The notes beneath the pieces were generated by a model. The model searched no databases. It saw nothing but the letters and a program-made list of their open reading frames with translations, and was not told where the DNA came from. A stretch of DNA of 64,000 bases from Gammaproteobacteria bacterium. GTDB lineage: Bacteria > Pseudomonadota > Gammaproteobacteria > JAABTG01. A program made the position numbers and the translations under genes. Below, piece after piece: positions 29,598-61,936 of the stretch (the first letter of the stretch is position 1; each line of letters starts with the position of its first letter). The stretch lies in contig JAGNLM010000001.1 of the NCBI GenBank assembly GCA_017999615.1, positions 264,549 through 328,548 of the forward strand, given 5' to 3'.

Positions 29598-30550
29598 CCC
29601 CGGTCCCCCCCGGACCGGCCGCCCCGCCGGTCGTGTTCCTGATGGGGCCGACGGGCGCGGGCAAGACCGACCTGGCGGTGCACCTCGTGGAGCGCCTGGG
29701 CTGCGGGATCGTCAGTGTCGACTCGGCGCTCGTCTACCGGGGGATGGACATCGGCACGGCCAAGCCGGGCCCCGAGGTGCTGGCACGGGCCCCGCACCGG
29801 CTCATCGACCTGCGCGACCCGCGGGAGTCCTATTCGGCCGCCGAGTTCCGGCGCGATGCCCTCGACGCCATCGTGGAGGTGCGCCGGGAGGGACGGGTGC
29901 CGCTGCTCGTGGGCGGCACCGGCCTCTACTTTCGCGCGCTCGAGCGGGGGCTCTCGGCGCTGCCGCCGGCGGACCCCGAGGTGCGCCGGCGCCTCAGCGA
30001 GGAGGGCGGGGCGCTCGGCTGGCCCGCGCTCCACGCGCGGTTGGCCGCGCTCGACCCCCCGGCCGCCGCCCGCATCCACGCGAACGACCCCCAGCGCATC
30101 CAGCGTGCCCTCGAGGTCCGGGAGTTGACCGGGCGGCCGATGAGCGAGCTCCTCGCGGAATCGCCCGGTTCCGCGCTGCCCTACCGGGTCGTCAAGGTGG
30201 TGCTCGAGCCGCTTGACCGCGCAGCCCTGCACGGGCGGCTCGAGGCGCGCTTCCGGGCGATGCTGGAGGCGGGCCTCGTGGCCGAGGTGGAGCGTCTGCG
30301 GTCCCGGGGGGACCTGTCGCCGGACCTGCCGTCGATGCGCGCGGTCGGTTACCGCCAGGTGTGGGCCTTCCTGGCGGGGGAGACCGACCGGGAGACCCTG
30401 GTCGCCCGCGCCGTGGCGGCCACGCGAGGTCTCGCCAAGCGCCAGCTGACCTGGCTGCGCGGGGAGAGCGGGGCCCTGCGGGTCGACCCCTTGGACCCCG
30501 GCGCCGTGGACCTCGTCCTGGGTTTTCTCGCCCGGCAGAGCCTCTCCTGA
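29594..30550 (+). CDS. miaA: tRNA dimethylallyltransferase
   Basis: ..VVFLMGPTGAGKTDLAVHLVERLGCGIVSVDSALVYRGMDIGTAKP.. (P-loop plus the conserved DSxxxY). Its start overlaps the mutL stop. Confidence 0.9.
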   Translation: MTPVPPGPAAPPVVFLMGPTGAGKTDLAVHLVERLGCGIVSVDSALVYRGMDIGTAKPGPEVLARAPHRLIDLRDPRESYSAAEFRRDALDAIVEVRREGRVPLLVGGTGLYFRALERGLSALPPADPEVRRRLSEEGGALGWPALHARLAALDPPAAARIHANDPQRIQRALEVRELTGRPMSELLAESPGSALPYRVVKVVLEPLDRAALHGRLEARFRAMLEAGLVAEVERLRSRGDLSPDLPSMRAVGYRQVWAFLAGETDRETLVARAVAATRGLAKRQLTWLRGESGALRVDPLDPGAVDLVLGFLARQSLS

Positions 30551-30925: not shown

Positions 30926-30955
30926 TCACGGCGCCTGCCAGAGGGTCTCGAGCGC

Positions 30956-32212
30956 TTGTTTGAGCGACCGCGGCGGGGTGAGCGCGCGGTCCTCGTGCAC
31001 GTTCGTTTCCCGGACGGGGAGGCGCAGGGCGAGGACCTCGAGGAGTTGCGCTCCCTCGCGGTGTCGGCGGGCGTCGAGCCGGTCGCCGAGGTCAGCGGTG
31101 TGCGGGAGCGCCCCGACCCCCGCCTGTTCGTGGGCAGCGGCAAGGTCGAGGAGGTCAAGGCGGCCGTCGAGGCCTCGGGTGCCGACCTCGTACTCGTCAA
31201 TCACGCGTTGACGCCGGGCCAGGAGCGCAACCTCGAGCGCTTCCTCTCCTGCCGCACCCTCGACCGCACGGGCCTGATCCTCGACATCTTCGCCCAGCGC
31301 GCCCGCTCCTTCGAGGGCAAGCTGCAGGTCGAGCTGGCCCAGCTGCGCCACCTCTCCACCCGGCTGGTCCGCGGCTGGACCCACCTGGAGCGTCAGCGCG
31401 GCGGCATCGGCCTGCGGGGGCCTGGCGAGAAGCAGCTCGAGACGGACCGTCGCCTGATCTCGGTCCGCATCCAGCAGATCGCCCGCGAGCTCGAGCACCT
31501 GGAGCGCCAGCGCTCCCAGCAGCGGCGTGGCCGGCGCCGCGCCGAGCTGCCCACCGTGTCGCTGGTGGGCTACACGAACGCGGGGAAATCCACGCTCTTC
31601 AACCGTCTGACCGGTGCGGGCGTTCTGGTGGCCGACCAGCTCTTCGCGACCCTCGACCCGACCCTGCGCCGCCTGGACCTCCCCGGCGGCCGCGCGGTGA
31701 TCCTGGCCGACACGGTGGGCTTCATCCGCCACCTGCCCCACGACCTGGTGGCCGCCTTCCGCGCCACGCTGGAGGAGACCCGCGAGGCGGACCTGCTGCT
31801 CTCCGTGGTCGACGCCTCCGACCCGGAGCGTGAGGTGAAGGCCGAGCAGGTCCAGCGGGTGCTCGAGGAGATCGGAGCGGGGGAGGTCCCCCAGCTCGAG
31901 GTGCTCAACAAGGTCGACCGCTGCCCCGGGGTCGAGCCTCACGTGGCCCGGGACGGGGACGGGGTGCCGCGCCAGGTCTGGGTCTCGGCGACCGCGGGCC
32001 TTGGGCTCGACGCCCTGCGCGAGGCCATCGCTGAGCGCGTCCTGCCCCCGCGCAGGCGCATGAGCGTGCGCCTGCCGATGACGGCCGGCCGCATGCGGGC
32101 GAGCCTCTTCGCCTCGGGGGTGGTGGTGGGCGAGAGCGTGGGCGACGGGGAGTGGCTTCTCGAAGTGGACATGGCCCCCGCCGACCTCGAGGCCCTGCGC
32201 CGCCGCCACTGA
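30956..32212 (+). CDS. hflX: GTPase HflX
   Basis: ..RAVLVHV.. N-domain, G-domain (..VSLVGYTNAGKSTLFNRLT.., ..DTVGFI..LPHDLVAAFRATLEE..) and hfq-hflX-hflKC synteny. Confidence 0.9.
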   Translation: MFERPRRGERAVLVHVRFPDGEAQGEDLEELRSLAVSAGVEPVAEVSGVRERPDPRLFVGSGKVEEVKAAVEASGADLVLVNHALTPGQERNLERFLSCRTLDRTGLILDIFAQRARSFEGKLQVELAQLRHLSTRLVRGWTHLERQRGGIGLRGPGEKQLETDRRLISVRIQQIARELEHLERQRSQQRRGRRRAELPTVSLVGYTNAGKSTLFNRLTGAGVLVADQLFATLDPTLRRLDLPGGRAVILADTVGFIRHLPHDLVAAFRATLEETREADLLLSVVDASDPEREVKAEQVQRVLEEIGAGEVPQLEVLNKVDRCPGVEPHVARDGDGVPRQVWVSATAGLGLDALREAIAERVLPPRRRMSVRLPMTAGRMRASLFASGVVVGESVGDGEWLLEVDMAPADLEALRRRH

Positions 32213-32355
32213 GCCAATCCCCGGGGTGAGCGCCTTCCGGGCCCTCCGGCCGGCGGGCGCCGGTTGCGGCCCGGGCGGACGGGTCGATAGAATCCGAAGA
32301 CGTACGCGGCGCACAGCGCGCCGTCCGGCATCCAACGCACAGCGGAGCACACCGA

Positions 32356-33543
32356 ATGGCCTGGAACGAGCCGGGCGGGGGACGGGACCCCTGGGGCAGC
32401 AGTGGCAATCAGGGTCCTCCGGACCTCGACCAAGTCATCCGCAACCTGCAGAGCAAGCTCGGTGATCTCTTCGGCCGGGGCGGCTCCAGCGGGGGCGCGG
32501 GCCGGGCCGCCCGGTTCAACTCGCGCGGCCTCGGCATCGGCCTCGGGATATTGGCGGCGGTCTGGGCGGCGGCCGGTTTCTACATCATCGACCCCGCCGA
32601 GGAAGGCGTGGTCACCCGGTTCGGCGCCTACGTGCGCACCGCCGGCCCCGGGCCGCACTGGCTGCCGTACTTCATCGAGCGCGTCCAGAAGGTCAACGTC
32701 CAGCAGGTCCGCACCGCCGAGATCGGCTTCCGGTCCACGGGCCGGACCCAGGGCGCGGTGGGCAGCGAGGCCCTGATGCTGACCCAGGACGAGAACATCA
32801 TCGACGTGAAATTCGCGATCCAGTACCGGGTCAAGGACGCCCCCGACTATCTCTTCAACACCCGCGACCCGGACCGCATCCTGCGCGACGTCACCGAGTC
32901 CGCGGTGCGCGAGACGGTGGGCCGCAGCACGATGGACTTCGTCATCACCGAGGGCCGCAGCGCCATCTCCGCCTCCGTGCAGGATCTGGCGCAGTCGATC
33001 CTGGACCGCTACGGGACCGGGCTCGTCGTGACCAGCGTCAACATGCAGGACGCCCAGCCGCCTGCGCAGGTGCAGGAATCCTTCTACGATGCGGTCAAGG
33101 CGCGCGAGGACGAGGTCCGCTTCCGCAACGAGGCCGAGGCCTACGCCAACGAGATCCTGCCCAAGGCGCGCGGCGACGCCGACGCCATCCGGGAGCAGGG
33201 CGCCGCCTATCGGGCCCGCGTTTCGGCGGTCGCCGACGGTGAGGCGAGCCGTTTCCTGGCGGTACTGAAGGAGTACCAGAAGGCCCCGGGCGTCACCCGC
33301 GAGCGCATGTACCTCGACGCGATCGAGGACGTGCTCTCCCGCAGCACCCCGCTGGTCCTCGAGGCCGAGGGGTCCAACAACGTCCTCTACCTGCCGCTCG
33401 ACAAGCTCGGGGAGAAGGCGCGCGCTGGCGCAGGCACCGGCACCGGCACCGAGCCGGACGCCTCCGTGCGATCGACACTGGGGACGGCGGCCGTCGACGC
33501 GGCGCGGCGCAGCCGTGAGGACCTGCGGCGGAGGGACCGGTGA
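32356..33543 (+). CDS. hflK: FtsH protease modulator HflK (SPFH/band-7)
   Basis: Gly-rich N-terminus, single TM (LGIGLGILAAVWAAAGFYII), SPFH domain (..VVTRFGAYVRTAGPGPHW..). It sits immediately upstream of hflC. Confidence 0.88.
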   Translation: MAWNEPGGGRDPWGSSGNQGPPDLDQVIRNLQSKLGDLFGRGGSSGGAGRAARFNSRGLGIGLGILAAVWAAAGFYIIDPAEEGVVTRFGAYVRTAGPGPHWLPYFIERVQKVNVQQVRTAEIGFRSTGRTQGAVGSEALMLTQDENIIDVKFAIQYRVKDAPDYLFNTRDPDRILRDVTESAVRETVGRSTMDFVITEGRSAISASVQDLAQSILDRYGTGLVVTSVNMQDAQPPAQVQESFYDAVKAREDEVRFRNEAEAYANEILPKARGDADAIREQGAAYRARVSAVADGEASRFLAVLKEYQKAPGVTRERMYLDAIEDVLSRSTPLVLEAEGSNNVLYLPLDKLGEKARAGAGTGTGTEPDASVRSTLGTAAVDAARRSREDLRRRDR

Positions 33544-34412
33544 TGGCGCGCAGCAAGCTGTGGGTCTTCGTGCTGGGGCTGATGGTGGTCATCGGCGTCT
33601 TCTCGATCTTCACCGTGGAGCAGTGGCAGAAGGCCATCCTGTTCCAGTTGGGTAAGGTGGTGAGCTCGGACTACGAGGCCGGACTGCAGTTCAAGATCCC
33701 GGTCATCCAGAACGTGGAGAAGTTCGACGCCCGGCTGCAGACGCTCGAGTCCGACCCCGAGCTCTACTTGACGAGCGAGAAGAAGAACGTGCTCGTGGAC
33801 AGCTTCGTGCTGTGGCGGGTCAAGAACGTGGAGAGCTTCTACACCGCGACCGGCGGCAGCATCGCCCGGGCGGGGGCGCGCCTCGGCGAGTTCGTGCGCA
33901 AGGGCCTGAAGGACGAGTTCGGCAAGCGGACCATCCAGGAGGTGGTCTCGGGCAAGCGCGCGGACATCATGGACATCCTGACGGTGACCGCGAACGCCCA
34001 GGCCGAGCCGTTCGGCATCGAGATCGTCGACGTGCGCGTCAAGCGGATCGACCTGCCGACCGAGGTGAGCACCTCCGTCTACCAGCGCATGCAGGCCGAG
34101 CGCCAGCGCGTCGCGCGCGACTTCCGCTCCCGCGGCGAGGAGGAGGCGAAGCGCATCCGCGCCCGGGCCGAGCGTGAGAGGGAGGTCATCCTGGCCGAGG
34201 CCGAGCGCGACGCCCAGCGCGTGCGCGGCGAGGGCGACGGCCAGGCCGCCGAGACCTACGCGAAGGCGTACGGGGAGGACGCGGAGTTCTACGCGTTCTA
34301 CCGCAGCCTGGGGGCCTACCGGGCCTCGTTCGACAGTCCGTCGGACGTGATCCTGCTGGGGCCGGACAACGACTTCTTCCGCTACTTCAAGAGCCAGAAA
34401 GGCGGTCAGTAA
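33540..34412 (+). CDS. hflC: FtsH protease modulator HflC (SPFH/band-7)
   Basis: MMARSKLWVFVLGLMVVIGVFSIFTVEQWQKAILFQLGKVV.., an SPFH domain. Its start overlaps the hflK stop. Confidence 0.9.
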   Translation: MMARSKLWVFVLGLMVVIGVFSIFTVEQWQKAILFQLGKVVSSDYEAGLQFKIPVIQNVEKFDARLQTLESDPELYLTSEKKNVLVDSFVLWRVKNVESFYTATGGSIARAGARLGEFVRKGLKDEFGKRTIQEVVSGKRADIMDILTVTANAQAEPFGIEIVDVRVKRIDLPTEVSTSVYQRMQAERQRVARDFRSRGEEEAKRIRARAEREREVILAEAERDAQRVRGEGDGQAAETYAKAYGEDAEFYAFYRSLGAYRASFDSPSDVILLGPDNDFFRYFKSQKGGQ

Positions 34413-34517
34413 CGGAGCCGGGTGAGCCGCGCGACCGGGGGGCCAACCCCCGGTCGTCGTTTCCGGGGCGCGGCGTCTCGGGAGTCCTCCGAATGGACCC
34501 GGCGCAACGGAGCAGCC

Positions 34518-34703
34518 ATGTGGGACGACCTCCTTGCCGCGCTCGCCCTCGTGTTCGTCTTCGAGGGTCTGATGCCATTCGTCAGTCCAGCGACCCTGCG
34601 CAGGACGCTCGCCCGGGTCGAGGGGATGAGTGACGGCGCCCTTCGCTTCACCGGGCTCTCCAGCATGCTGCTGGGCCTCCTGATCCTGAATCTCGTCCGC
34701 TGA
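34518..34703 (+). CDS. Small DUF2065-family membrane protein (YjeT-like)
   Basis: 61 aa with two hydrophobic helices ([24 protein letters not shown].., ..[18 protein letters not shown]). It sits in the conserved position between hflC and purA/hisZ. SD GGAG is 5 nt upstream, and its stop overlaps the hisZ ATG. Confidence 0.6.
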
Positions 34704-35914
34704 TGAGCGCCCGCGACCGTTGGCTGCTGCCCGAAGGCATCGCCGAGGTCCTCCCGGCGGAGGCCGCCGCGCTCGAGCGGGCCCGGCGCCGGTTGCTCGA
34801 CCTCTTCGAGCGCTGGGGCTACGAACTGGTCGTGCCGCCCTTCGTCGAGTACCTGGAGTCCCTGCTCACGGGCACGGGCGGGGACCTCGACCTGCAGACC
34901 TTCAAGCTCACGGACCAACTGACCGGCCGGCTGATGGGGGTCCGGGCGGACATGACGCCCCAGGTGGCCCGCATCGACGCTCACAGCCTGCGCCGGGTGG
35001 GGCCGGTGCGCCTGTGCTACCTCGGCACGGTGCTGCACACGCTCCCGGACGGGATTGCCCGCAGCCGCAGCCCGATCCAGGTCGGCGCAGAGCTCTACGG
35101 GCACGCCGGGATGGAGAGCGACGTCGAGGTGCTCTGCCTGATGCTGGAGTCGCTCGCCTCCGCCGGTGTGCGCCCGGTGCACGTGGACCTCGGGCACGTC
35201 GGGGTGTTCCGGGGGCTCGCCCGGGAGGCGCGCCTCGACGCGGAGCAGGAGCGGCAGCTCTTCGATGCGCTCCAGCGCAAGGCGGTCCCGGAGGTGGAGG
35301 AGTGGCTCGCGCGCTGGGAGCTGCCCGCGCCGGTGCGCGCGCGGCTCTCCGCCCTGCCCGTGCTGAACGGAGGCCGTGAGGTCCTCGGCGAGGCGGCCGC
35401 GGTGCTCGCCGGGGCGGGGGAGGCCGTGCGGGGCTGCCTGAGCGACCTCGACCAGGTGGCGCGGGCGATGGCCGCGCGCAGGCCCGAGGTCCCGCTCCAC
35501 TTCGACCTGGCGGAGCTCCGGGGGTACCGTTACCACACGGGCCTCGTGTTCGCCGCGTTCGTTCCCGGGCACGGCCAGGAGGTGGCGCGCGGTGGGCGCT
35601 ACGACGAGGTGGGCCGGGTGTTCGGCCGGGCGCGGCCGGCGCGGGGCTTCAGCACGGACCTGATGACCCTGATCGCTCTCGGCGACGTGCGGGCGCCCGC
35701 CCCGCGCTCCGGGATCCTGGCGCCCTGGTCGGACGCGCCCGGGCTGCTCGCCGCGGTGCGGGACCTGCGGGCTGCCGGCGAGCGGGTCGTGAGCGCGCTC
35801 CCGGGTGCGCCGGCCGACCCGGGGGAACTGGGCTGCGACCGTGTGCTGGTGGAGCACGAGGCGCGCTGGGTGGTCGAGGCGCTGTCCACCCCGTTACTGC
35901 GGGAGCCCGGCTGA
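34703..35914 (+). CDS. hisZ: ATP phosphoribosyltransferase regulatory subunit HisZ (HisRS paralogue)
   Basis: ..[11 protein letters not shown].., ..[18 protein letters not shown].. and ..[10 protein letters not shown].. are class-II aaRS-like motifs without an anticodon-binding domain. ~400 aa. hisZ-purA adjacency. Confidence 0.82.
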
Positions 35915-36006
35915 GGTCTCGGCGTGGCGCGGGCTTCCGGGCGCGGCGCGGACCTCCGGATGCGCTCCCCGCTTCCGGGGGTCGCGCGGACCTCCGGGTA
36001 CGGCCT

Positions 36007-36076
36007 CGCGGGACACGCCGCAAGTACATCCCTGTAGGCTCGTCTGCCGCCGTCCCTGGCGGCAGACGGTCCCGCG
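36007..36076. repeat. REP-like nested-palindrome element, copy B (hisZ-purA intergenic, inverted orientation)
   Basis: CGCGGGACACGCCGCAAGTACATCCCTGTAGGCTCGTCTGCCGCCGTCCCTGGCGGCAGACGGTCCCGCG, the reverse complement of the core at 21390 and 37541. An upstream 14-bp direct repeat GCGCGGACCTCCGG occurs at 35946 and 35983. Confidence 0.85.
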
Positions 36077-36128
36077 AAACCGCACCCGAGGTCCGGCGAT
36101 GGCCCGGCCACTCGATACGAAGGCCTGA

Positions 36129-37436
<1,308 letters not shown>

Positions 37437-37518
37437 GGACCCCGCGGTCCGGTATCCCGTAAAGGAGCGGTCGTGGTGCGCGGGGTGGGGAACGGCGGGG
37501 TGGAGAGGTAGCGGTAGG

Positions 37519-37704: not shown

Positions 37705-40110
37705 TCAGTCCTTTTCCGGTGCCGGCTTCTGGGTGGCCGGTTTCTCAGCCGCTGGTTTCTCGCTCGCCGGCTTGTCGGGGGCGGGCTTTGCCGCTGCTGG
37801 CTTCTCGGCAGGCTTCTCCGCTGCAGGCTTCGCCTCGACGGGGGCGGCCGGCTTGGCCTCAGCCGGAGCGGCCGGCTGCGCCTCGGCGGCGGGCGCGGCG
37901 CCGGCCTCCTGTTTCTTGGCGTCGCCCTGCACCTGGTGCACCCGGGCCGCGAAGGTGTCCCACCACTGCTTCAGGTAGCCCTGGTAACCGAGGAAGCCCA
38001 GGGCCCCCACCAGGATCGCGAGCACCGTGTAGGTCTTCCAGGGCCGCTTCTTCTCCGCGTACGGGTCCTGCAGCGAGCGCTCGGCGCCCGGGGGGAGCTT
38101 CGCGGTCGAGGTGAGGGAGCCGCCGAAGGGGATGTTGATCTTCGCGAGCGTGTTGATGGCCCAGCCGTTGGCGTCGAGGATGGGACCGAGGTTGCGCTGG
38201 CGCAGCTTCAGGTACGCAATCACCATCGACGGCCCGGAAATGGCCAGGATGATGCCGACGATGGCGAGCGGCATCTCGATGGGGGAGAGTGCCAGGAAGC
38301 CCGTCAGCACCGAGGCGATGGCCGTGCCGATGGCGCCGATGGCCAGGCCGATGGCGGCGAAGATACCGGCGAACTTGGCGATGTCGAAGGGCGGTGGCGG
38401 CGGTGCCTTGCCCGCCTCGACCTTCGTGGAGACGTCGACGACCCCGGCAGCGGCCTGGTCCTGCACCGCCTTCTCGCGTGCCCCCGCGACCTTCTCGATC
38501 TGCTCCCCGATCATCCGGGCGATGCGCTTGTACGGTGACCAGAACGCCTGACCCACGCTGATGGGGTGGTCGATGATCTTGGTGATGGTCGCGTCCCAGT
38601 CGCGACCCTTGCGGTCGTAGAAGACGCCGTTGCGCCCCACGAGGAGGTTGTCGGAATCTCCCGCCGTGAAGGCACAGGCGACGGTCATCTTCTCGTCACT
38701 GCCCCGGCGCACACAGTCGCAGTAGGCCAGGTAGGTGCGGCTCAGGTTGGCGAGCGAACCGTGCTTGGTGGCGTCCTCGACGCGTACGCAGAGGTCGCAG
38801 CTGCGGCCGTCCAGGTACAGGGTGCCGGCCTGGAAGATCGCCTTCTTCTTGCCCGTGTAGAAGTCGCGGAAGGAGACGAAGTTGTTGAGCAGCGTGTAGA
38901 GGTCCCGGTAGTAGCGGGCGAGCCGGTCCACCGAGTCGATGGCGCTCGCCTCGGCCTCGAGGGCGGCGTCCTGGGCGAGCAGCGCCTGGACCGTCTCCTG
39001 ACTGCCGTTGCCGAGGACCTCGCGCACGCGGTCGAGGCCGAGCGGCTCGGCGACGGTGCCCTTCTTGCGCGCGAGCCATGCCTCGTGGGCGGCGAACTTC
39101 GAGGAGATCTCGGCCCACTCCGCGGCACTCAGGCTCTTGCGCGACCCGAGAAGCGGTTCGACCACCCGGCTGCGCAGCTGGGCGATGGCGCCGGCCCAGG
39201 CCGGGTTCACCCCGTCGCCGAGGGGCAGGGCGCCGCCGGCCTCGATGCGGGCGAGCGGCAGGGCGGCGACCTCTTCGGTGCCGGGCGAAAGGGTGCGCCC
39301 CGAGAGGGCCTCGTAGCCCGTGAGGGCAGGGTTCAAGGGTCCGGCGGCGCGCGGGTCGAAGACCGCGAGGCCGCAGCGGGTGAAGAAGTCGTCGACCTTG
39401 GCCTTCACGGCCTCGAAGACGGCCGACGCGGCGGCGGTGTCGTCGCCGAGGGGCCGCAGTCCGGCGTCGTTCTCGGACTCCGCCCACCAGTCGGAGTAGG
39501 CGCGGGCCTCGTCGAAGAAGGTGTCCACCAGCTGCTGGTCCACCCCGGGGCCGCCCGAGCGGTCGGTCTTGGCCCCGAGGAGCTTGATCACGTCCTCGAT
39601 GACGGACTTGACGGCGGGGTCCTCGGCCGCCTCGGGCGGGATCACACCGTCACCGTTGAACCGGGTCTGGGCGAAGATCCGGGTGGTGTCGGAGGTGTCC
39701 TCGACCGCGATGGAATCGGCCTTCGCCTTGCCGAGGTAGGTGAGGATCTGACGGGCGGAGGCGAGGAGCTTCTTGCCCTCGGGCTTGCTGTCGTCGATGG
39801 CCGCGAGGGGCAGGGCGGTCCCGCACCGGGTGATGTCGCCGGGGTTCTTCAGCACGGAGCAGGCCCACTTCACCGCGGCGAGGATCTCGGGGGCGCGGAT
39901 GCGGCCGTCCTTGTCGGCGTCCAGGATCGCGAGGGTCTTCTCGTCGAATTCCACGCCCTGGGTCGGGCAGGCGAGCGCCGCCCAGAGCTTCTGATCGAGG
40001 GATTCCAGGTTGCGCAGGTCCTCGGCGGTCTCGAGCCGGACCTGGTCGAATCCGCCGGAGCGGAAGAACCGCCACTTGTGCTGGTGGCCGGCGTTGTTCT
40101 CGTTCGCCAT
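37705..40110 (-). CDS. Large (801 aa) uncharacterised membrane-anchored protein: cytoplasmic N-domain with an EF-hand-like Ca-binding loop, three C-terminal TM helices and an Ala/Lys/Pro/Glu-rich repeat tail
   Basis: Strong SD (GGAGGAGG, 6 nt) before ATG MANENNAGHQHKWRFFRSGGFDQ.. DxDxDG loop ..LAILDADKDGRIRAPEI.. A Cys-rich conserved block ..LYLDGRSCDLCVRVEDATKHGSLANLSRTYLAYCDCVRRG..MTVACAFTAGDSDN.. TM helices ..FAGIFAAIGLAIGAIGTAIASVLTGFLAL.., ..LAIVGIILAISGPSMVIAYL.., ..YTVLAILVGALGFLGYQGY.. The tail is (AxKPAxE)n: ..AEAKPAAPVEAKPAAEKPAEKPAAAKPAPDKPASEKPAAEKPATQKPAPEKD. I recognised no family. The 1447-aa track ORF 37705..42048 is this gene plus an antisense over-extension. Confidence 0.7.
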   Translation of the reverse strand: MANENNAGHQHKWRFFRSGGFDQVRLETAEDLRNLESLDQKLWAALACPTQGVEFDEKTLAILDADKDGRIRAPEILAAVKWACSVLKNPGDITRCGTALPLAAIDDSKPEGKKLLASARQILTYLGKAKADSIAVEDTSDTTRIFAQTRFNGDGVIPPEAAEDPAVKSVIEDVIKLLGAKTDRSGGPGVDQQLVDTFFDEARAYSDWWAESENDAGLRPLGDDTAAASAVFEAVKAKVDDFFTRCGLAVFDPRAAGPLNPALTGYEALSGRTLSPGTEEVAALPLARIEAGGALPLGDGVNPAWAGAIAQLRSRVVEPLLGSRKSLSAAEWAEISSKFAAHEAWLARKKGTVAEPLGLDRVREVLGNGSQETVQALLAQDAALEAEASAIDSVDRLARYYRDLYTLLNNFVSFRDFYTGKKKAIFQAGTLYLDGRSCDLCVRVEDATKHGSLANLSRTYLAYCDCVRRGSDEKMTVACAFTAGDSDNLLVGRNGVFYDRKGRDWDATITKIIDHPISVGQAFWSPYKRIARMIGEQIEKVAGAREKAVQDQAAAGVVDVSTKVEAGKAPPPPPFDIAKFAGIFAAIGLAIGAIGTAIASVLTGFLALSPIEMPLAIVGIILAISGPSMVIAYLKLRQRNLGPILDANGWAINTLAKINIPFGGSLTSTAKLPPGAERSLQDPYAEKKRPWKTYTVLAILVGALGFLGYQGYLKQWWDTFAARVHQVQGDAKKQEAGAAPAAEAQPAAPAEAKPAAPVEAKPAAEKPAEKPAAAKPAPDKPASEKPAAEKPATQKPAPEKD

Positions 40111-40368
40111 CGGATGCCTCCTCCAAAAGCGTTTATCGTTCTGGGGCAGCGCCGTTCCGGCGACCGATTCGCCTGAGTACGCCCCGGGGACGGTGGGCAG
40201 GGTAAGGTCTGCCGCTGCCGACTGCAACGTTCGGGAGGCCATTGAGCCCTGCCTGGAAGTCCAGGGAGAGCCGCCTGAGCCGCTCGATTTCGTAGGGGGC
40301 CAGCGCCGAGTGCCAAGCCCGAGTTGGGCGAGCGCCCAGCGGGCCAGGATTGCCCTACCATCGGCGCC

Positions 40369-46260
<5,892 letters not shown>

Positions 46261-60798: not shown

Positions 60799-61602
60799 CT
60801 AACCCGCCCGGCTCCGGCGCAGGGCGCCCAGCAGCCCGAGGGCCGAAAGGAAGAGCGGCAAGGCGGCCGGCACGGGCACGGGGCTGGCCTGCCACGTGAT
60901 GTCGCTGGTGTGCGAACCGTCGAAGGCATAATTTGTCCCGCCAACCTTGTTCGTATCGCCATACTCAAGGGTCTCTGAAAGCGTCCCGGAGTCTAGCTGG
61001 AGGTAAAGGGTATATAACTGGTCATAAACATGGGTCCCTGGCAGGGCATCGGTACGAAAGATCTCTGCGTTGATCTGCAGGTAACCGGAACCGGAGTCCT
61101 CGAACGGATTGGCGCCGTAGGAAGCGCTACCGAGGGATTTGACAGCGCCGTTTGTTCCGGGGTCGAGCTCCCAAAAGCTCTGGTCCTCCCAGACCACACC
61201 GGGTACCAGGGGCTGCACAAGGCCAGGGTTTTCGCCTCCAGCGCTGGTGGCGATGTTCGCATCACTCCGATAGAAGACCGGCATGGAATCGTTGTAGACG
61301 TTTGTCGGGGAGTACGGGGGGTTGTTCTCCTGCGCGAGGTAGCCGTTCAGTTTCAGGCTCACGACATCGTTCACGGTCCACTCAACGGAAGCGCCGGCCG
61401 CAGCAGCGTCCGAGAGGTTGAGCGTGAGCACGCCCGAGATGGGCACGGGGGTGTTGAACACAGCCGATGTCGAATCATAGAACCACGCACCGACACCCCC
61501 GGTGAACGTGAAATCAACTTCCACTGCTTGCGCCGCCTGCAGGGTGGCCAAGCTCAGACCGGCCGCCACGACGGCCCCGGTTAGCGTGCGTTTCGTGAAC
61601 AT
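60799..61602 (-). CDS. Secreted protein with a C-terminal VPLPA/PEP-CTERM-like sorting domain
   Basis: Signal peptide MFTKRTLTGAVVAAGLSLATLQAAQA, then a beta-rich body. The C-terminus is ..ASPVPVPAALPLFLSALGLLGALRRSRAG (P-rich motif + TM + Arg cluster). The track ORF start at 61980 over-extends into the tRNA. Confidence 0.6.
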   Translation of the reverse strand: MFTKRTLTGAVVAAGLSLATLQAAQAVEVDFTFTGGVGAWFYDSTSAVFNTPVPISGVLTLNLSDAAAAGASVEWTVNDVVSLKLNGYLAQENNPPYSPTNVYNDSMPVFYRSDANIATSAGGENPGLVQPLVPGVVWEDQSFWELDPGTNGAVKSLGSASYGANPFEDSGSGYLQINAEIFRTDALPGTHVYDQLYTLYLQLDSGTLSETLEYGDTNKVGGTNYAFDGSHTSDITWQASPVPVPAALPLFLSALGLLGALRRSRAG

Positions 61603-61936
61603 CGCTGAGACTCCCTGGGTTCTGGGTGGTTGGCTCGATGCAGTTTGACGAGGGTCGAGTGCAGTCGCCAGGATGCGGTCGGGCCGAAGCATTTCCCGTG
61701 CCTGATGGCGCCCAACCCGCGGAGACTCAGCCATTTGACATAGGCGAGGGTTCGGCCCCGCCCCGTCGGGGTCGCCGGCTGTAAAGTCCACCGACAAGCC
61801 CGTGTTCCCGGGCGCGGGGAGAGGAGGGGAGCGCTCGACGCGCCGAGCACCCGAGGCCGAGCGCCGGGAGGGGAGATCGAGGGGGTGAGGAAGAGCCGGC
61901 CCCGACTCAGGGGCGCGACCGCCGCAGGGCTGCGGT

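Follow-up and report, generated by a model that had tools for sequence, protein, structure and literature searches.

What kind of protein is encoded on the minus strand at positions 37705..40110 of a 64,000-nucleotide stretch of a gammaproteobacterial genome (contig JAGNLM010000001.1), and what might it do? The whole stretch is called the window throughout. A reading of its letters alone (the original prediction) had described an 801-residue protein with an EF-hand loop, a Cys-rich block, a run of five prolines, three transmembrane (TM) helices and a repetitive tail. We find it to be a member of a family that is very large and strongly conserved but has so far gone unannotated; its genes are chromosomal and stand alone, and its proteins combine one EF-hand loop with a TM hairpin. 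For this family we tentatively propose a Ca2+-responsive, homo-oligomeric, channel-like device of the inner membrane, a reading that we hold to be possible rather than probable.

A large family of hypothetical proteins

A word-indexed search returned more than 8000 relatives, each of the top 120 at least 60% identical, and an exhaustive search gave 2899 representatives of clusters at 50% identity (E <= 0.001), of which 1113 had E <= 1e-30. At least 598 species-level genomes carry homologues. Among the matches listed, most relatives are 700–790 aa long with a single full-length match, the shorter ones resembling fragments, and the family is almost restricted to diderm bacteria. Homologues were found in the Pseudomonadota, Thermodesulfobacteriota, Planctomycetota, Verrucomicrobiota, Bacteroidota, Chlorobi, Nitrospirota, Myxococcota and Elusimicrobia. 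Among the individual taxa are Competibacter, Nitrosomonas, Allochromatium, Thiocapsa, Azospira oryzae, Thauera, Magnetospirillum, Gallionella, Sideroxydans and Methylovulum; further ones are Desulfobacterota/Syntrophobacterales and Prosthecochloris. Identity between phyla is 57–65%, and mean column identity is 45% in an alignment of 126 sequences filtered to less than 80% pairwise identity.

The source name of every relative, RefSeq WP_ records included, is ‘hypothetical protein’. The sequences are already in the databases under this name, and no curated family was found for them, nor a structure, a paper or a relative in fold. Scans of the 801-aa protein with Pfam and NCBIfam gave no family match, the sole signal being low-complexity noise from the tail, and the PADLOC and PHROGs models gave 0 matches each. 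Pfam scans of 54 relatives returned weak EF-hand signals together with noise from TM composition (MFS_1, holin). Sequence-profile searches of the PDB, performed with profiles of 30 and of 126 sequences, produced nothing with E < 0.01; their top rows were the TM segment of herpesvirus gB, a compositional match, and polcalcin. Literature searches found no paper describing the architecture of the 801-aa protein. Other bacterial EF-hand fusions are listed in PMC7016017, in the covered passages of which this architecture does not appear.

No match to the gene was obtained in a phage collection, and a plasmid collection of 72,556 records gave a single one, an unannotated 145-aa fragment. It lies at 61373..61804 (minus strand) of the conjugative Aeromonas salmonicida plasmid NZ_CP060033.1, is 42% identical to aa 342–486 and is probably a gene remnant.

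A conserved EF-hand loop

The Dx[DN]xDG motif is a recognised hallmark of the EF-hand-type Ca2+ site (PMC3123361). In the window protein it forms the start of the loop D64-A-D66-K-D68-G69-R-I71-R-A-P-E75, the conservation of which was counted in 117 distant representatives, 35–61% identical to the query. D64 (loop position 1) and D68 (position 5) are each kept in 97% of these, and D66 (position 3) is Asp in 88% and Asn in a further 8%. G69 (position 6) is found in 88%, Ile, Val or Leu at residue 71 (position 8) in 99%, and Glu or Asp at residue 75 (position 12) in 98%. The strict pattern D-x-[DNS]-x-[DNS]-G-x-[ILVM]-x3-[ED] occurs in 98 of the 117, most exceptions altering Gly6 alone; retention of the loop in orthologues, which the original prediction had put forward as a check, is thus seen.

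AlphaFold2 predicts a helix at 57–63, the loop with a short strand at 70–72, and a second helix at 73–86, with a predicted local distance difference test score (pLDDT) above 95. Sub-threshold matches to the Pfam models EF-hand_1, EF-hand_5, EF-hand_6 and EF-hand_7 were obtained in 12 of the 54 relatives (best E 0.0015), and EF-hand models were the only family signal that recurred among them. In the PDB profile searches, aa 57–96 gave sub-threshold matches to NCS-1, CDPK and polcalcin, and aa 133–199 one to the EF-hand pair of polcalcin Che a 3 (E 0.039). A second conserved loop, F-N152-G-D154-G155, has no acids at positions 1 and 12.

The family shares with proteins of the EF-hand type, for example calmodulin-like domains, polcalcins and the bacterial EfhP a 12-residue loop in which positions 1, 3 and 5 are Asp, position 6 is Gly, position 8 Ile/Val and position 12 Glu, and which is likewise flanked by helices (predicted here) and kept family-wide. 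Unlike those proteins it has a near-invariant Arg at position 9 and one clear loop, for which a canonical partner was not demonstrated; moreover, the loop sits within a membrane protein of 740 aa, the other ~600 residues of which match nothing known. One conserved and slightly non-canonical EF-hand loop, which is probably functional, is established by these comparisons; a domain with four EF-hands is not.

Predicted structure and the beta domain

A first AlphaFold2 model, calculated from a 30-sequence alignment, was poor (pLDDT 67). Addition of more divergent relatives gave the 126-sequence alignment and a second model, of residues 1–737, with a pLDDT of 92.6 and a predicted template-modelling score of 0.76. 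The features found are collected in Table 1; the second model has further short helices and strands at aa 90–214 and a further helix at aa 712–736. Conservation per domain, for which the frequency of the commonest residue was averaged, is 0.62 in TM2, 0.61 in the beta domain, 0.60 in the N-terminal beta region, 0.57 in the TM2–TM3 loop and 0.51 in TM1, and falls to 0.44–0.45 in the soluble helical domains, 0.32 in TM3 and 0.07 in the tail.

Foldseek searches of the PDB with both models, and of BFVD with the second, returned nothing significant. The top rows with both models were ClyA-family tripartite alpha-pore-forming toxins (AhlB, SmhA/B, PaxB, MakA), which likewise have a long helical bundle and a hydrophobic helical hairpin. 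With E = 0.5–3 (best 0.55–0.88), template-modelling scores (TM-scores) of at most 0.18 and root-mean-square deviations above 20 Å they are not a match, and these toxins are secreted, whereas the 801-aa protein is a resident membrane protein without signal peptide. Rows for bestrophin homologues had E 1.1–3 and TM-scores of at most 0.13. On these E values and TM-scores both groups were discarded. The rows listed contained no chain of CorA or MscS. The original prediction had recognised no family, and the Pfam, NCBIfam, PADLOC, PHROGs, PDB-profile and Foldseek searches, all negative, bear this out: by them the family appears to lie outside known kinds, the EF-hand motif excepted.

Judging from its residues, the beta domain is clearly functional. 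D434, R436, Y463, G492-R-N-G495, D499, W505 and K511 are invariant or almost so in it, and H450 is kept in 97% of sequences. The block of cysteines within this domain had been thought a possible metal site. C438, C441, C464 and C466 are conserved in 77%, 85%, 92% and 69% respectively, and no co-conserved Cys4 or Cys3His set was found. An obligate metal site is disfavoured because the four cysteines are lost one by one, the others staying, and are replaced by hydrophobic residues (L, I, V, F or M). AlphaFold2 places them on beta strands, where residues i and i+2 share a face; such behaviour would suit residues buried in the core.

The same domain bears on an improbable alternative, that of a membrane-bound enzyme which might use lipids or precursors of the envelope as substrates on the cytoplasmic side, with the EF-hand as a metal site of regulatory or structural function. 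Its active site would comprise D434, R436, H450, Y463, R493, N494, D499, D504, D506 and K511 together with the cytoplasmic loop between TM2 and TM3. It is indeed in the beta domain and this loop that the densest clusters of invariant polar residues lie, and the cross-phylum conservation matches that of core enzymes. However, no similarity to catalytic families was obtained in Pfam, NCBIfam or the PDB, no metabolic gene neighbourhood appears in the 87 loci compared, and a recognisable nucleotide- or cofactor-binding motif was not seen.

Table 1. Features of the gene, its product and its neighbours, with positions in the window.
Feature	Residues	Positions	Strand	Basis or remark
Complete gene	1–801	37705..40110	-	801 codons + stop; member of large unannotated family
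Shine-Dalgarno sequence GGAGGAGG		within 40111..40130	-	6 nt 5' of ATG at 40110
N-terminal beta-hairpin region, conserved (HxWRFFRxGGFDQV ... LDxKLWxALxCP)	10–50	39961..40083	-	AlphaFold2 hairpins 15–24, 45–49
EF-hand-like helical region	51–200	39511..39960	-	AlphaFold2 and weak EF-hand matches
EF-hand loop DADKDGRIRAPE	64–75	39886..39921	-	DxDxDG, Ile at 8, Arg at 9, Glu at 12
Long-helix bundle, high confidence	201–412	38875..39510	-	AlphaFold2 long helices 192–411
Beta domain (GRNGxFYDRxGxDWDAT)	420–516	38563..38853	-	AlphaFold2 429–513, one helix
Cys block	435–470	38701..38808	-	inside beta domain
Stalk, single 43-residue helix towards membrane	519–561	38428..38556	-	AlphaFold2
Variable low-confidence linker with Pro5 run	562–576	38383..38427	-	AlphaFold2 and alignment
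TM1, glycine-zipper helix (G582, A585, A586, G588, A590, G592)	577–606	38293..38382	-	AlphaFold2 and conservation
TM2, mid-membrane S625-G626-P627-S628, KLR ending	612–637	38200..38277	-	AlphaFold2 and conservation
TM2–TM3 loop, structured (R639, P643, G649, W650, N653, P673)	638–690	38041..38199	-	pLDDT 90–98
TM3, poorly conserved, anchor-like	691–712	37975..38040	-	hydrophobicity; AlphaFold2 helix 691–709
Ala/Pro/Lys/Glu repeat tail, disordered	737–801	37708..37902	-	pLDDT <50 in first model
purA		36135..37437	+	convergent neighbour of 801-aa gene
Tandem UvrA-like gene, 1963 aa		40369..46260	+	divergent neighbour; ATG at 40369, MSDDCIRIRGARQNNLK...

Membrane part and topology

The channel-like proposal turns on the membrane part. 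Three closely spaced TM helices had been predicted; there are three helices, and TM1 and TM2 are joined by a turn of 5–6 residues, but TM3 lies 53 residues past TM2. The conserved small residues of TM1 sit on several of its faces. P627 of TM2 is near-universal (117 of 118 sequences), and the SGPS motif is followed by K635-L-R637-x-R639. The conservation of the TM1–TM2 hairpin therefore indicates tight, functional helix packing that would go beyond mere anchoring.

No signal peptide was found in the 801-aa protein, the net charge of the TM2–TM3 loop across the family is +5.2, and the segment past TM3 is near neutral. Because of these features and the short turn between TM1 and TM2, we infer from the positive-inside rule that the N-terminal 576 residues and loop 638–690 would be cytoplasmic and the tail periplasmic. 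The near-restriction of the listed matches to diderm bacteria is consistent with a periplasmic tail and does not prove it.

A tentative model and its alternatives

The cytoplasmic part of ~576 aa would comprise the beta-hairpin, the EF-hand loop within its helical region, the helix bundle, the beta domain and the 43-residue stalk. These would be followed by the glycine-zipper/SGPS TM hairpin, the basic cytoplasmic loop, the anchor-like TM3 and a variable Ala/Pro-rich periplasmic tail. We infer that Ca2+ is bound and that the cytoplasmic module is coupled to the TM hairpin. Ca2+ or another divalent cation would bind the DxDxDG...E loop and cause the cytoplasmic module to shift, and this shift would reach TM1 and TM2 by way of the beta domain, the stalk and then the cytoplasmic loop. 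The hairpin would pack tightly in a homo-oligomer and act as a gated pore or other membrane-active element, the tail being an accessory periplasmic spacer outside the core mechanism.

Two kinds of channel offer analogies of layout. The CorA/ZntB channels, compared here in architecture only, likewise have a large N-terminal cytoplasmic cation-binding domain, a long stalk helix and, at the C-terminal end, a TM hairpin whose periplasmic turn is very short and whose second TM helix is followed by basic residues. In contrast to CorA, the present protein has no Pfam CorA match, no GMN motif and no fold match, and it has a flexible linker between stalk and TM1, an extra structured loop, a third TM helix and a periplasmic tail. 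The Gly/Ala-rich, tightly packing TM helix resembles the pore helix of MscS-like channels, which have three TM helices per chain, and in the EF-hand-bearing MscS-like proteins Msy1 and Msy2 of fission yeast an EF-hand is likewise joined to a small membrane module. Here, however, the soluble part comes first, the reverse of the order in MscS, and there is neither an MS_channel match in Pfam nor a fold match. The family thus appears analogous in layout to CorA and to EF-hand MscS-like channels and is a member of neither.

Several observations weigh against a Ca2+-responsive pore. The Pfam EF-hand models did not match the window protein at E <= 1. A second clear EF-hand was not found in the 801-aa protein, and a comparison of aa 51–128 with aa 129–200 by hhalign gave no sign of internal duplication (probability 0.4%). 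Position 9 of the loop is Arg72, a non-canonical residue found as Arg in 110 of 118 sequences. Because of it, the strict PROSITE pattern PS00018, which has position 9 in [DENQSTAGC], is not matched; the loop had been called canonical, which holds for D-x-D-x-D-G-x-I-x3-E but not for this pattern. In none of the 87 loci does a neighbouring Ca2+ transporter or regulator support a Ca2+ role. The top conservation of the beta domain, with its invariant D, R, H, N and Y residues, might just as well be the sign of a catalytic or binding site, and the pore rests on TM conservation and the pattern of small residues, which tight packing with a partner would fit equally well.

This last point leads to a somewhat doubtful alternative, a membrane scaffold, tether or transducer that is Ca2+-dependent or Ca2+-stabilised and has no pore. 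Its TM hairpin would bind a partner encoded elsewhere, its cytoplasmic module would recruit or regulate proteins, and its tail would extend into the diderm periplasm. The large helical cytoplasmic module with its stalk helix suits such a role, as do the near-confinement of the listed matches to diderm phyla, the TonB-like extended composition of the tail in many members, and the compatibility of the TM conservation with hetero-oligomeric packing. The 87 loci, however, contain no conserved neighbouring partner, about a third of the members have a very short tail or none, and such exceptional conservation of a mid-membrane SGPS motif and a glycine zipper is unusual for a mere anchor.

Should the channel-like proposal be right in its broadest form, the family would be the first case of a new class of Ca2+ sensor/channel in the bacterial inner membrane, with an undescribed cytoplasmic fold and a glycine-zipper pore, present in at least nine diderm phyla; we consider this rather unlikely. 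If true, it would be a long-sought, widespread component of bacterial cytoplasmic Ca2+ signalling or flux. Regulated cytoplasmic Ca2+ transients occur in bacteria, and, to our knowledge, no Ca2+ sensor or channel widely conserved among bacteria has been recognised. The family is a good candidate for such a missing sensor or channel because it has a conserved Ca2+-type loop and no detectable relative of known function or structure. Homologues occur in culturable, partly genetically tractable organisms (Azospira oryzae, Thauera butanivorans, Magnetospirillum, Allochromatium and Thiocapsa), and the Ca2+ hypothesis is therefore directly testable. A protein of ~740 aa with core-enzyme-like conservation stands without annotation in hundreds of species, and even without Ca2+ gating this is a large annotation gap for bacteria of environmental and wastewater settings, Competibacter, Nitrosomonas and Gallionella among them.

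The C-terminal tail

The last 74 residues of the window protein contain 26 A, 15 P, 12 K and 9 E. A tail of the type (A-x-K-P-A-x-E)n had been predicted; repeats of these four residues are present, but they are better described as KPAxx pentapeptide-like units, which lie on imperfect 12–27-nt DNA repeats. Across the family, 0–155 residues follow TM3 (median 32), fewer than 25 in 44 of 125 members (35%), and Ala and Pro make up 31% and 21% of these residues when pooled. The Pro5 run (P570–P574) corresponds in relatives to a variable ‘AGKAPxAPFD’ linker. Neither the tail nor the ‘hinge’ of the original prediction is thus a family-wide feature, and both are lineage-specific decorations.

A metagenomic relative that is 99% identical has a tail 23 residues longer, by insertions resembling PAAEKPA. 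Over residues 1–727 it differs from the window protein by five substitutions, all conservative. These repeat indels show that tail length shifts on very short evolutionary timescales, the core being nearly frozen.

A resemblance of the tail to TolA/TonB, which had also been suggested, lies in composition only. The spacers of TonB and TolA are likewise rich in Pro, Ala, Lys and Glu, net-neutral and presumably extended after a TM helix, and the tail is predicted to be periplasmic here. In contrast to them, it gives no Pfam TonB/TolA match and ends without a globular domain, and no ExbBD or TolQR genes lie in the flanks of the window gene or of homologous loci. Furthermore, the segment is dispensable in many members of the family and varies by repeat indels between 99%-identical proteins.

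Low-complexity tails had been described as a local theme of the region. A screen of the C-terminal 30–40 aa of all long open reading frames (ORFs) in the window flagged two: the 801-aa gene and a 161-aa stop-to-stop ORF (29643..30128, plus strand) that is a candidate gene only. At the C-terminal ends, which the screen covered, the theme was not reproduced.

Start site and genomic context

The 801-aa ORF is a real gene. It is translated without internal stops, and third-position GC content is 0.89–0.97 in the expected phase from 37801 to 40200, where the phase changes to that of the plus-strand gene; the signal of the 801-aa ORF collapses upstream of 40110. The strong Shine-Dalgarno sequence and the clear coding signal noted earlier are confirmed by this phase and by the spacing of GGAGGAGG. 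All the features first described (the D64–E75 loop, the Cys block G435–G470, P570–P574, the hydrophobic helices and the tail) were also found where they had been placed. The frame stays open upstream to 42048 or 42129 (~670 more codons, 40111..42129, minus strand), from which mechanical ORF lists give a 1447-aa ORF. This extension, a shadow ORF of high GC content that runs antisense to the UvrA-like gene, lies outside the 801-aa gene: the true start is at 40110, because the GC phase switches, GGAGGAGG is positioned for this start and all aligned homologues have the same start Met.

The product of the UvrA-like gene is of double length, with UvrA_DNA-bind and UvrA_inter domains and at least four ABC/P-loop segments. 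The 258-bp spacer (40111..40368) between the divergent genes is as originally given. The pairing and co-regulation that it had suggested are another matter. Searched by tblastn with the window's UvrA-like protein, the flanks of 86 loci contained such a gene in one, that of a 72%-identical relative (L004). This locus has the order mutL-miaA-hfq-hflX-hflK-hflC-hisZ-purA, the 801-aa-type gene, UvrA-like gene, as in the window, with a spacer of 1.5 kb, an extra small ORF and a UvrA-like orthologue of 1944 aa. A 77%-identical relative and the loci of Competibacter, Nitrosomonas (two loci) and a planctomycete have unrelated flanks. No LexA box was found in the spacer 40111..40368, and no Rfam RNA near the gene. 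Because of the single locus in 86, the unrelated flanks and the missing LexA box, the adjacency is lineage synteny only, and the members of the family are stand-alone genes. All-against-all BLAST of the flank ORFs of 87 loci gave no conserved neighbour; the shared clusters were generic ones of ABC ATPases (13 loci) and of histidine kinases (12 loci), besides a Gallionella-specific synteny.

The genomic setting also bears on a further alternative, which we regard as very improbable: an anti-phage or conflict effector in which a sensor and a membrane-disrupting hairpin act in the style of abortive infection. A single gene with an N-terminal ‘sensor’ and C-terminal TM helices would suit this role, and the best Foldseek rows, albeit non-significant (E >= 0.5, TM-scores of at most 0.18), are the ClyA-family alpha-pore-forming toxins. 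Yet the flanks are of housekeeping type (purA, hisZ, hflKC, dapF, mraZ and others) with no defence islands, PADLOC and PHROGs had no match, and the family is absent from phages and represented on plasmids by one fragment. Its very high conservation and uniform length are unlike those of fast-evolving defence genes. Context and conservation both disfavour this reading, and the channel-like device remains our tentative proposal.

Beyond purA the window contains hisZ, hflC and hflK, and the stretch 30926..37436 has the classical housekeeping synteny hflX-hflK-hflC-hisZ-purA. A 474-aa ORF at 30926..32350 (minus strand) has no Pfam match, and codon-position GC suggests that it is the shadow of a plus-strand ORF at 30956..32212; L004 carries an HflX-like GTPase at the equivalent position. 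In five loci of Gallionella and related iron-oxidisers, 3–5 conserved flanking ORFs are shared (~290, 620 and 210 aa), and this block is the only multi-gene synteny among the 87 loci outside the window's own lineage.

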